Shown: piece after piece, positions 60,453 through 60,866 of the stretch
Layout of the letters: every line of letters begins with the position of its first letter
How positions within the stretch are numbered: position 1 is the stretch's first letter
DNA from: Escherichia phage vB_ESM-pEJ01
Length of the DNA: 64,000 nucleotides
Reading direction: 5' to 3' (one strand)
Sequence record: OP114734.1
Made by a program: the position numbers and the translations under genes
The notes under the pieces: generated by a model
Told to the model about the DNA's origin: nothing
The model's input: only the letters and a program-made list of their open reading frames with translations
Database searches by the model: none

Positions 60453-60866
60453 TTACATAGATTCCGTAAAGGTACGGGTGATAATATCAAGTTGTTGTTC
60501 GCGTGTCAAGGCGTTGAAGCGGGTAGCATAACCACTGATTCGAATTGTAAGCTGCGGGTACTTCTCAGGATGTTCAACCGCATCAAGAAGAGTCTCCCGA
60601 CGCAGTACATTCGCGTTGAGATGATGACCCGCGTTACTATTTACCCCGTTATCAATTGCTAAAGGACGGAAGCTAGTTGTGTGCAGTTCCAGCGAATCGA
60701 CGTCTTCTGCGGTGATCACATGATCTTCTGCGAAAGTTTTACTAACAATTACTTTAGCGCCGATCAGTGCTTTCGGTTCGGATACCAGAATCATAGGCGC
60801 GAAATGTCCACCGATAATAGTACCTTTATGCTCACCTTTCATGATTTGAATTGCTTTAAATTCCAT
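60453..60866 (-). CDS. autonomous glycyl radical cofactor (GrcA/YfiD-like, PFL C-terminal domain)
   Basis: C-terminus [44 protein letters not shown] is nearly the GrcA/PflB glycyl-radical signature ([13 protein letters not shown]..). Confidence 0.75.

Follow-up and report, generated by a model that had tools for sequence, protein, structure and literature searches.

A GrcA/YfiD-type glycyl-radical protein of Escherichia phage vB_ESM-pEJ01, predicted to rescue host pyruvate formate-lyase and encoded by an allele linked to an HNH homing endonuclease gene

Introduction

Pyruvate formate-lyase (PFL), a barrel enzyme of about 760 amino acids (aa) with a catalytic Cys418/Cys419 pair, is a producer of formate in E. 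coli fermentation. Here we characterized, in a 64,000-nucleotide (nt) stretch of the genome of Escherichia phage vB_ESM-pEJ01 (pEJ01; sequence record OP114734.1; hereafter the window), a gene on the minus strand at 60453..60866 whose 137-aa product resembles the small proteins that repair this enzyme after cleavage by oxygen.

In the account of Andorfer et al. (2021, PMC8683613), which draws on Wagner et al. (2001), E. coli YfiD (= GrcA) and Y06I of bacteriophage T4 are 'spare part' proteins of approximately 14 kDa. Both acquire a glycyl radical through the PFL activating enzyme, associate with O2-cleaved PFL and restore its activity, and no spare part other than these two is named there as validated to date. 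The C-terminal half duplicates the PFL radical domain, and in YfiD the N-terminal half is required both to bind cleaved PFL and to be activated efficiently. Free YfiD is activated poorly, which ties its activation to cleaved PFL being present (PMC8683613). Rescue by GrcA has been reported in vivo, and its radical glycine is numbered G102 (PMC12338860). The T4 gene vs.6 was found conserved, with a Gly_radical match, in 6/6 T4-like genomes including the RB49 group (Nolan et al., 2006, PMC1524935). In this sense, repair of host PFL by a GrcA of phage origin is already known: the T4 protein was characterized in 2001 and the gene is commonly annotated.

Results

Homology and architecture of the pEJ01 protein

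We assigned the pEJ01 protein to the GrcA/YfiD type by its full-length homology to, and its synteny with, T4 vs.6/Y06I, whose product has been validated biochemically. By analogy with the characterized proteins it is very probably (about 0.85) a spare part that replaces the O2-damaged radical end of host PFL, as the original prediction for this locus had proposed. The gene and its parts are as follows.

60453..60866, minus strand: GrcA/YfiD-like coding sequence, orthologue of vs.6/Y06I, 137 aa plus stop codon (open reading frame listing, Pfam, PDB and PHROG)
60456..60638, minus strand: glycyl-radical domain (residues 77-137), which the HMMER alignments place on PflB 699-759 and GrcA 67-127
60531..60533, minus strand: codon of Gly112, the predicted radical glycine, in the motif R-I-S-G-Y-A-T, aligned with GrcA G102 and PflB G734
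60639..60866, minus strand: N-terminal half, residues 1-76, with weak likeness to the N-terminal part of GrcA and an insertion relative to T4 Y06I

The open reading frame (ORF) starts with ATG and has its own Shine-Dalgarno (SD) sequence and stop codon, so that the product is a small stand-alone protein, of 15.25 kDa and without any Cys. Pfam returned a match to Gly_radical (9.3e-16). HMMER aligned residues 37-137 with E. coli GrcA (PDB 6owr, E = 3e-29) and residues 77-137 with residues 699-759 of PflB (PDB 1h16, E = 4.8e-24), the latter without a gap. Over the last 61 residues the protein was identical to GrcA at 46/61 positions and to PflB at 44/61 positions (72-75%), and its radical loop reads TIRISGYAT. 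The top NCBIfam match was TIGR04365 'spare_glycyl' (1.7e-33), and phrog_1209 matched residues 3-137 over profile positions 1-121 of 121 (E = 3.6e-47). All of the 31 columns that are invariant among seven phage homologues and E. coli GrcA were kept (31/31), including G112, Y113, R109 and the YPQLTIR stretch.

These results bear out the prediction that the ORF carries a glycyl-radical signature: the similarity was far above chance and was not of low complexity, and in the alignment with GrcA and PflB the radical glycine and its flanks were conserved. The C-terminal peptide that had been quoted in support was present at residues 99-137, but is 39 aa long and not 45.

In E. coli GrcA (TIGR04365; IPR011140), as in the phage protein, a PflB-like radical domain forms the C-terminal part of a small stand-alone protein, and the HMMER alignment of the two reaches N-terminally beyond the PflB-like part, to phage residue 37, and covers the A-x-x-I-V-x-K...E-D stretch. 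Homology of the N-terminal half to that of GrcA is tentative: it was identical to GrcA at 18/63 positions (29%) and contains an insertion, and D48 was its sole invariant position in an eight-sequence alignment.

A full PFL was rejected as an identity for this gene, with TIGR01255 covering only profile positions 680-744 of 744 and scoring 78 bits against a cut-off of 994. The loop YPQLTIR[VI]SGYA is common to the C-terminus of PflB/TdcE and the phage protein, but the latter is without the catalytic barrel of approximately 700 residues that bears Cys418/Cys419 in PflB, and therefore cannot be a PFL by itself. The label 'pyruvate formate-lyase', under which the gene appears in some GenBank records, is a misnomer.

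The bacterial and the phage genes also differ in position, E. coli grcA lying in the host ung-grcA-eamB locus and the phage gene in a cluster of early genes. DNA identity to E. coli grcA was approximately 71%, with similarity to grcA/tdcE confined to the 3' 168 nt. Each of the 5426/5426 complete E. coli genomes matched the phage gene, and among the matches listed the targets were grcA or tdcE. Recent capture from the host was ruled out by the DNA identity to E. coli grcA, only about 71% over these 168 nt.

Orthology with T4 Y06I and distribution among phages

The source genome is a Krischvirus (RB49-like Straboviridae), as are all the relatives inspected. A 701-nt segment around the grcA-like gene was 100% identical to Escherichia phage FL20 and 85-99.9% identical in 57 further phage records, most of which bear the name of an Escherichia or Shigella phage. 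JSE and Phi1 list the homologous gene as vs.6, JK32 and kvi as 'autonomous glycyl radical cofactor', and it belongs to a conserved early block with the order tk - tk.4 - vs - vs.1 - regB - ... - nrdC.11 - [HNH] - vs.6 - 41-aa ORF - vs.8.

In T4 the match by tblastn was ORF 63.1 (X04567; 120 aa, between denV and tk), with 52% identity over 98% coverage; we take this ORF to be vs.6/Y06I. T4 Y06I and the pEJ01 protein are orthologous, with a common early-region neighbourhood, architecture and PHROG family (1209), and with identity of about 52-58% overall and 45/61 in the radical domain. They differ in length (120 aa in T4, 137 aa in pEJ01), with an insertion of 12-14 residues near residues 17-33 of the pEJ01 protein, and in the motif, which is RVSGYAV in T4 and RISGYAT in pEJ01. 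The radical domain of Y06I was identical to E. coli GrcA at 59/61 positions, compared with 46/61 for the pEJ01 protein, and the homing endonuclease gene after the grcA-like gene in pEJ01 is a further difference from T4.

The T4 protein was itself split in its likeness to GrcA, with 59/61 identical positions in the C-terminal 61 residues and only 27% identity in the N-terminal half. A similar split was observed in the protein of Aeromonas phage BUCT695, whose radical domain was identical to GrcA at 56/61 positions. A radical domain so near to that of the host suggests either extreme constraint or repeated exchange with host genes.

Homologues were found by tblastn in 1580/50,697 phage records. 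The carriers included T4-like phages of Escherichia, Salmonella, Klebsiella, Enterobacter, Yersinia and Aeromonas, T5-like Demerecviridae, Erwinia jumbo phages and others, and many of these records already carry the annotation 'autonomous glycyl radical cofactor'.

Gene organization and expression signals

The signals around the gene are a strong SD sequence, tight coupling to the genes upstream and a terminator directly downstream.

60871..60876, minus strand: SD sequence GAGGTG, 4 nt 5' of the ATG and directly 3' of the stop codon of the 41-aa ORF (read from the sequence)
60414..60447, minus strand: intrinsic terminator with a 10-bp stem and a GAAA loop, then UUUAUUUUUAU, beginning 6 nt past the stop codon
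60877..61002, minus strand: 41-aa ORF, PHROG 13848, directly upstream, with a 10-nt gap to the ATG of the grcA-like gene
61002..61493, minus strand: homologue of vs.8, 163 aa, PHROG 1488, overlapped by the 41-aa ORF

For the stem of the terminator (60447..60424), after which comes a U-run, folding gave -15.7 kcal/mol (z = -3.9). The hairpin was kept in 7/7 aligned Krischvirus sequences, and in phages G37-3 and G2494 a terminator is annotated at the corresponding site 3' of the grcA-like gene. Folding of the stretch between the 41-aa ORF and the ATG gave no hairpin, and the closest one upstream, at approximately 61510-61541 (-21 kcal/mol), lies 5' of the vs.8 homologue and is without a U-run. 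The 41-aa ORF and the grcA-like gene are probably co-transcribed, and the grcA-like gene is most likely the third and last cistron of a unit that begins with the vs.8 homologue. It had been described as a terminator-bounded single-gene unit. The downstream terminator stands, but the upstream boundary does not, because of the 10-nt gap to the 41-aa ORF, the overlap of that ORF with the vs.8 homologue, the lack of a hairpin between the genes and the lack of a U-run after the upstream hairpin.

A variant radical domain linked to an HNH homing endonuclease gene

Two further elements, one of them inside the grcA-like gene, distinguish this allele.

59811..60404, minus strand: free-standing homing endonuclease with NUMOD4 and HNH_3 domains (Pfam), 197 aa, directly past the terminator
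60481..60509, minus strand: candidate sigma-70-like promoter, TTGACA, 17-nt spacer and extended -10 TG-n-TATTAT, matching 11/12 consensus positions, within codons 120-129 and facing the HNH gene

Only 8 phage records, every one a Krischvirus, held a full-length copy of the HNH gene, each time at the same position, and the alignments of the other 50 Krischvirus matches ended exactly at the HNH start codon. Directly past the terminator lies nrdC.11 in Phi1, kvi and G2494, and a different homing endonuclease in JSE.

A sliding-window DNA comparison of seven phages revealed a mosaic. Identity was at least 96% in all seven across the upstream region and the initial ~170 nt of the grcA-like gene. 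Between nt ~176 and the stop codon (60453-60690) identity to JSE and to the phages without the HNH gene was mostly 42-80%, except in a conserved patch at nt 278-325, whereas in comparison with the two other carriers of this HNH gene in the set the 3' half was, from nt ~250, 91-100% identical to G37-3 and 80-98% identical to JK32. By tblastn, the C-terminal 78 residues had identity of at least 79.5% only in the same 8 HNH-carrying genomes and of at most about 72% elsewhere. Relative to JSE, the pEJ01 protein was 92% identical in the N-terminal half, normally the variable part, but only 64% identical in the radical domain, normally the conserved one. The phage collection yielded no donor for the variant 3' allele, its best match outside the 8 HNH genomes having approximately 72% protein identity.

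Homing without an intron ('intronless homing') is known for the Seg and Mob endonucleases of T4. Judged from the alignments, the mosaic of the 3' half has the pattern expected if a free-standing homing endonuclease had left a co-conversion tract, or if this were a target allele resistant to its cleavage. The chimeric allele would be expected to be functional because it keeps the 31/31 family-invariant residues.

The promoter is proposed as a candidate from its consensus match, which is found in HNH-linked alleles only; the alternative allele reads CTGACT ... TGTTAT. It lies 5' of the terminator, and a transcript from it to the HNH gene must therefore read through the hairpin at 60447..60424.

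NrdD, NrdG and a possible link to formate supply

The window also encodes a class III ribonucleotide reductase (RNR) and its activase, and GrcA-like genes were found by nrdD/nrdG in other phages.

40274..42136, minus strand: NrdD, class III RNR (Pfam NRDD, 1.9e-175; T4 NrdD structure 1h78, E = 2.8e-255)
38360..38869, minus strand: NrdG, radical-SAM activase of NrdD (Pfam Fer4_12, 2.4e-43, and Radical_SAM)
L004:4001-4384 (Ah1), L007:4950-5324 (BUCT695) and L006:3001-3363 (pEa_SNUABM_49): GrcA-like genes by nrdD/nrdG, with further cases at loci L026, L030, L051, L056 and L081

The original prediction had placed the gene alongside nrdD/nrdG. Both genes are indeed in the window and on the same strand, but they lie 18-22 kb from the grcA-like gene (NrdD 18 kb, NrdG 22 kb) and are near it only at the scale of the genome. 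The spacing is of the T4 type and is alike in phage Ozark, with vs.6 at ~62.2 kb and nrdD at ~42.4-44.2 kb.

Closer arrangements were found elsewhere. In Aeromonas phage Ah1 (Cinqassovirus, Ah1/Aeh1-like) the genes follow each other as nrdD-nrdG-vs.6-nrdC-nrdH, with an overlap between the vs.6 homologue and the end of nrdG, in BUCT695 (Grimontviridae), also a phage of Aeromonas, the GrcA-like gene begins 9 nt past nrdD, and in Erwinia jumbo phage pEa_SNUABM_49 (Eneladusvirus) it lies between nrdD and nrdG. We scanned 80 IMG/VR loci with 6-kb flanks for such adjacency and found NrdD/NrdG nearby in 5/80, all Eneladusvirus-like or Aeh1/Ah1-like. A general GrcA-NrdD adjacency was ruled out, since most lineages (T4-like and T5-like enterobacterial phages; 75/80 loci) had no NrdD/NrdG nearby. 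The adjacency is therefore recurrent but specific to certain lineages, and its recurrence supports a functional link between GrcA and NrdD.

NrdD homologues were present in 2912 phage records, compared with 1580 for GrcA, and outnumbered GrcA homologues in every listed organism-name category except Yersinia, which was absent from the NrdD list. These counts are consistent with, and not proof of, the carriers of GrcA being a subset of the carriers of NrdD.

Most class III RNRs that have been characterized use formate as their reductant, and T4 NrdD is proposed to possess a site that binds it (PMC4493059). The NrdD of pEJ01 is closely homologous to that of T4. We tentatively consider a joint proposal, possible but with the odds somewhat against it as a whole. 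Its first part is that phage GrcA would belong to an anaerobic module for deoxynucleoside triphosphate (dNTP) supply, in which re-armed host PFL gives NrdD its formate, and would not serve the general upkeep of fermentation. Its second part is that the pEJ01 allele would be chimeric, with a radical half imported together with the HNH gene and the coding sequence of the radical loop as the homing target. If true, membership in a dNTP module would account for the position of the GrcA-like gene in or by nrdD-nrdG in three unrelated phage lineages, and for the occurrence of NrdD in every GrcA-bearing lineage sampled. No explicit proposal linking phage GrcA, NrdD and formate was found in the literature searched, an absence that is no proof of absence.

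The radical loop of pEJ01 NrdD (residues ~590-598) reads RRVSGYLG, compared with RRTCAYLG in the T4 NrdD crystal construct, and its pre-glycine residues therefore match the PFL-type RVSGY motif.

Other features of the window

A homing endonuclease gene of the AP2-domain/HNH type lies at 61556-62130 on the minus strand, between the vs.8 homologue and an M15 peptidase gene. In JK32 and JSE this gene is intact, with 576 nt, whereas in pEJ01 a 1-nt deletion in an A5 run (A-run 61758-61761) breaks it into two ORFs that overlap. Apart from the split it was approximately 99% identical to the JK32/JSE copies, although identity to JSE was only 85.5% in the grcA region lying 3' of the start codon of the HNH gene; kvi, G37-3, G2494 and Phi1 lack the gene. 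Either a mobile gene spread recently and has since become a pseudogene, or the split is a homopolymer sequencing error.

Another homing-endonuclease-like gene, with HNH_3 and AP2 domains, lies at 45663-46418 on the minus strand and overlaps by 23 nt the start of a gene that encodes a Dam-type (D12 class) N6-adenine methyltransferase (46396-47211, minus strand). Upstream of the M15 peptidase gene (62176..62565), five small and very hydrophobic ORFs of 42-88 aa follow in a row at 62594-63559 on the minus strand, and look like tandem small membrane proteins.

Discussion

By analogy with the E. coli and T4 proteins, O2 would attack active host PflB and cut its chain at the radical glycine G734. 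The phage protein would then bind the cleaved PflB, with the N-terminal half aiding docking and the C-terminal 60 residues replacing the lost radical domain, and the host activase PflA, a radical SAM enzyme, would put the radical on Gly112. The benefit to the phage could be twofold: fermentative ATP and acetyl-CoA would be kept up in a host unable to resynthesize the 85-kDa PflB, and the supply of formate to the phage class III RNR would be sustained during anaerobic or microaerobic infection. Both the rescue of PFL by the diverged pEJ01 allele and the reason why the phage would need it are what we infer from the characterized relatives.

Several points weigh against this account. The heptapeptide RISGYAT differs at two positions from RVSGYAV, the canonical PflA substrate, and after the glycine the protein carries the substitutions S119A, P122R, R126L, V128I and A130T, which occur only in the 8 HNH-carrying genomes. 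The N-terminal half, which YfiD needs for efficient binding and activation, is the part that is 29% identical to GrcA and contains an insertion. The formate rationale for NrdD is one that we infer, and NrdD/NrdG were nearby in few of the scanned loci (5/80). Finally, the TIGR04365 match scored 115.6 bits, under the NCBI equivalog cut-off of 170 bits. As an argument against membership this last point was uninformative, since the validated T4 Y06I fails likewise (151.1 bits); the cut-off therefore delimits bacterial GrcA and not function.

The five other phage homologues scored 106-141 bits on the same model, so that the cut-off excluded 7/7 phage homologues tested (106-151 bits). This probably explains the labels 'hypothetical protein' and 'pyruvate formate-lyase' in GenBank.

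The variant loop raises the alternative of a decoy or inhibitor that binds host PflA or PflB unproductively and so shuts down or redirects fermentation, which we consider very unlikely. Mimics of host-protein fragments are common in phages, the substitutions near the glycine (RISGYAT for RVSGYAV) are unusual and the N-terminal half has diverged from GrcA. However, all family-invariant residues are kept, including the radical glycine, which a decoy would not need, and the T4 orthologue restores PFL activity and does not block it in the account of Andorfer et al. (PMC8683613). Sister Krischvirus alleles retain the canonical RVSGYAV, and co-conversion by the homing endonuclease explains the variant allele better.

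It is a shade less likely again that the protein is a spare part for phage NrdD, activated by NrdG and replacing the NrdD C-terminus after O2 cleavage, along the lines of the salvage of another glycyl-radical enzyme that had been suggested for this gene. The NrdD of E. coli and of T4 is also cleaved by oxygen at the radical glycine, pEJ01 encodes both NrdD and NrdG, and the GrcA-like gene adjoins nrdD or nrdG or lies between them in Ah1, BUCT695 and the Eneladusvirus jumbo phages. Spare parts for other glycyl-radical enzymes have been speculated upon (PMC8683613). A comparison of the two proteins nevertheless argues against such a role. They fall in the same Pfam Gly_radical superfamily (for NrdD, T4, PDB 1h78) and have the pentapeptide R-V/I-S-G-Y in common, but BLASTP against pEJ01 NrdD returned only this pentapeptide, R[IV]SGY, at E = 0.3-2, and the residues after the glycine are wholly different from YLGSVDLRPFNHG of NrdD, whose tail after the RRVSGYLG loop is unrelated to that of the phage protein. 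NrdD carries a four-cysteine zinc ribbon (CxxC...CxxC) just before the glycine loop, whereas the phage protein is free of Cys. Its C-terminal 61 residues are instead 72-75% identical to PflB and GrcA, and T4 Y06I is described as acting with PFL and PFL activase (PMC8683613). Membership in the NrdD radical domain was ruled out on these grounds, the protein having no Cys4 zinc ribbon and no R-x-x-G-Y-L-G loop and a likeness of only 5 residues.

Least likely of all is a non-functional remnant, the decaying 3' piece of a pflB, tdcE or grcA gene captured from the host: PflB likeness is limited to the C-terminal 60 residues and DNA similarity to E. coli grcA/tdcE to the 3' 168 nt, but the ORF is intact with a strong SD, the full-length PHROG 1209 family is kept in 1580 phage records from several families, the N-terminal half is at least 92% identical among the Krischvirus proteins compared (92% to JSE), and the host grcA DNA identity of about 71% speaks against recent capture.

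That the pEJ01 protein would repair host PFL adds little that is new in itself, the gene being a sequence variant of a known and widely annotated phage gene. Its practical value lies in annotation, with approximately half of the related records still labelled 'hypothetical protein' or, wrongly, 'pyruvate formate-lyase'. The HNH-linked allele provides a natural experiment on the variation that is tolerated in the PflA recognition loop, and the question of why lytic phages of facultative anaerobes keep a grcA-like gene becomes testable through the hypothesis that formate is supplied to NrdD.

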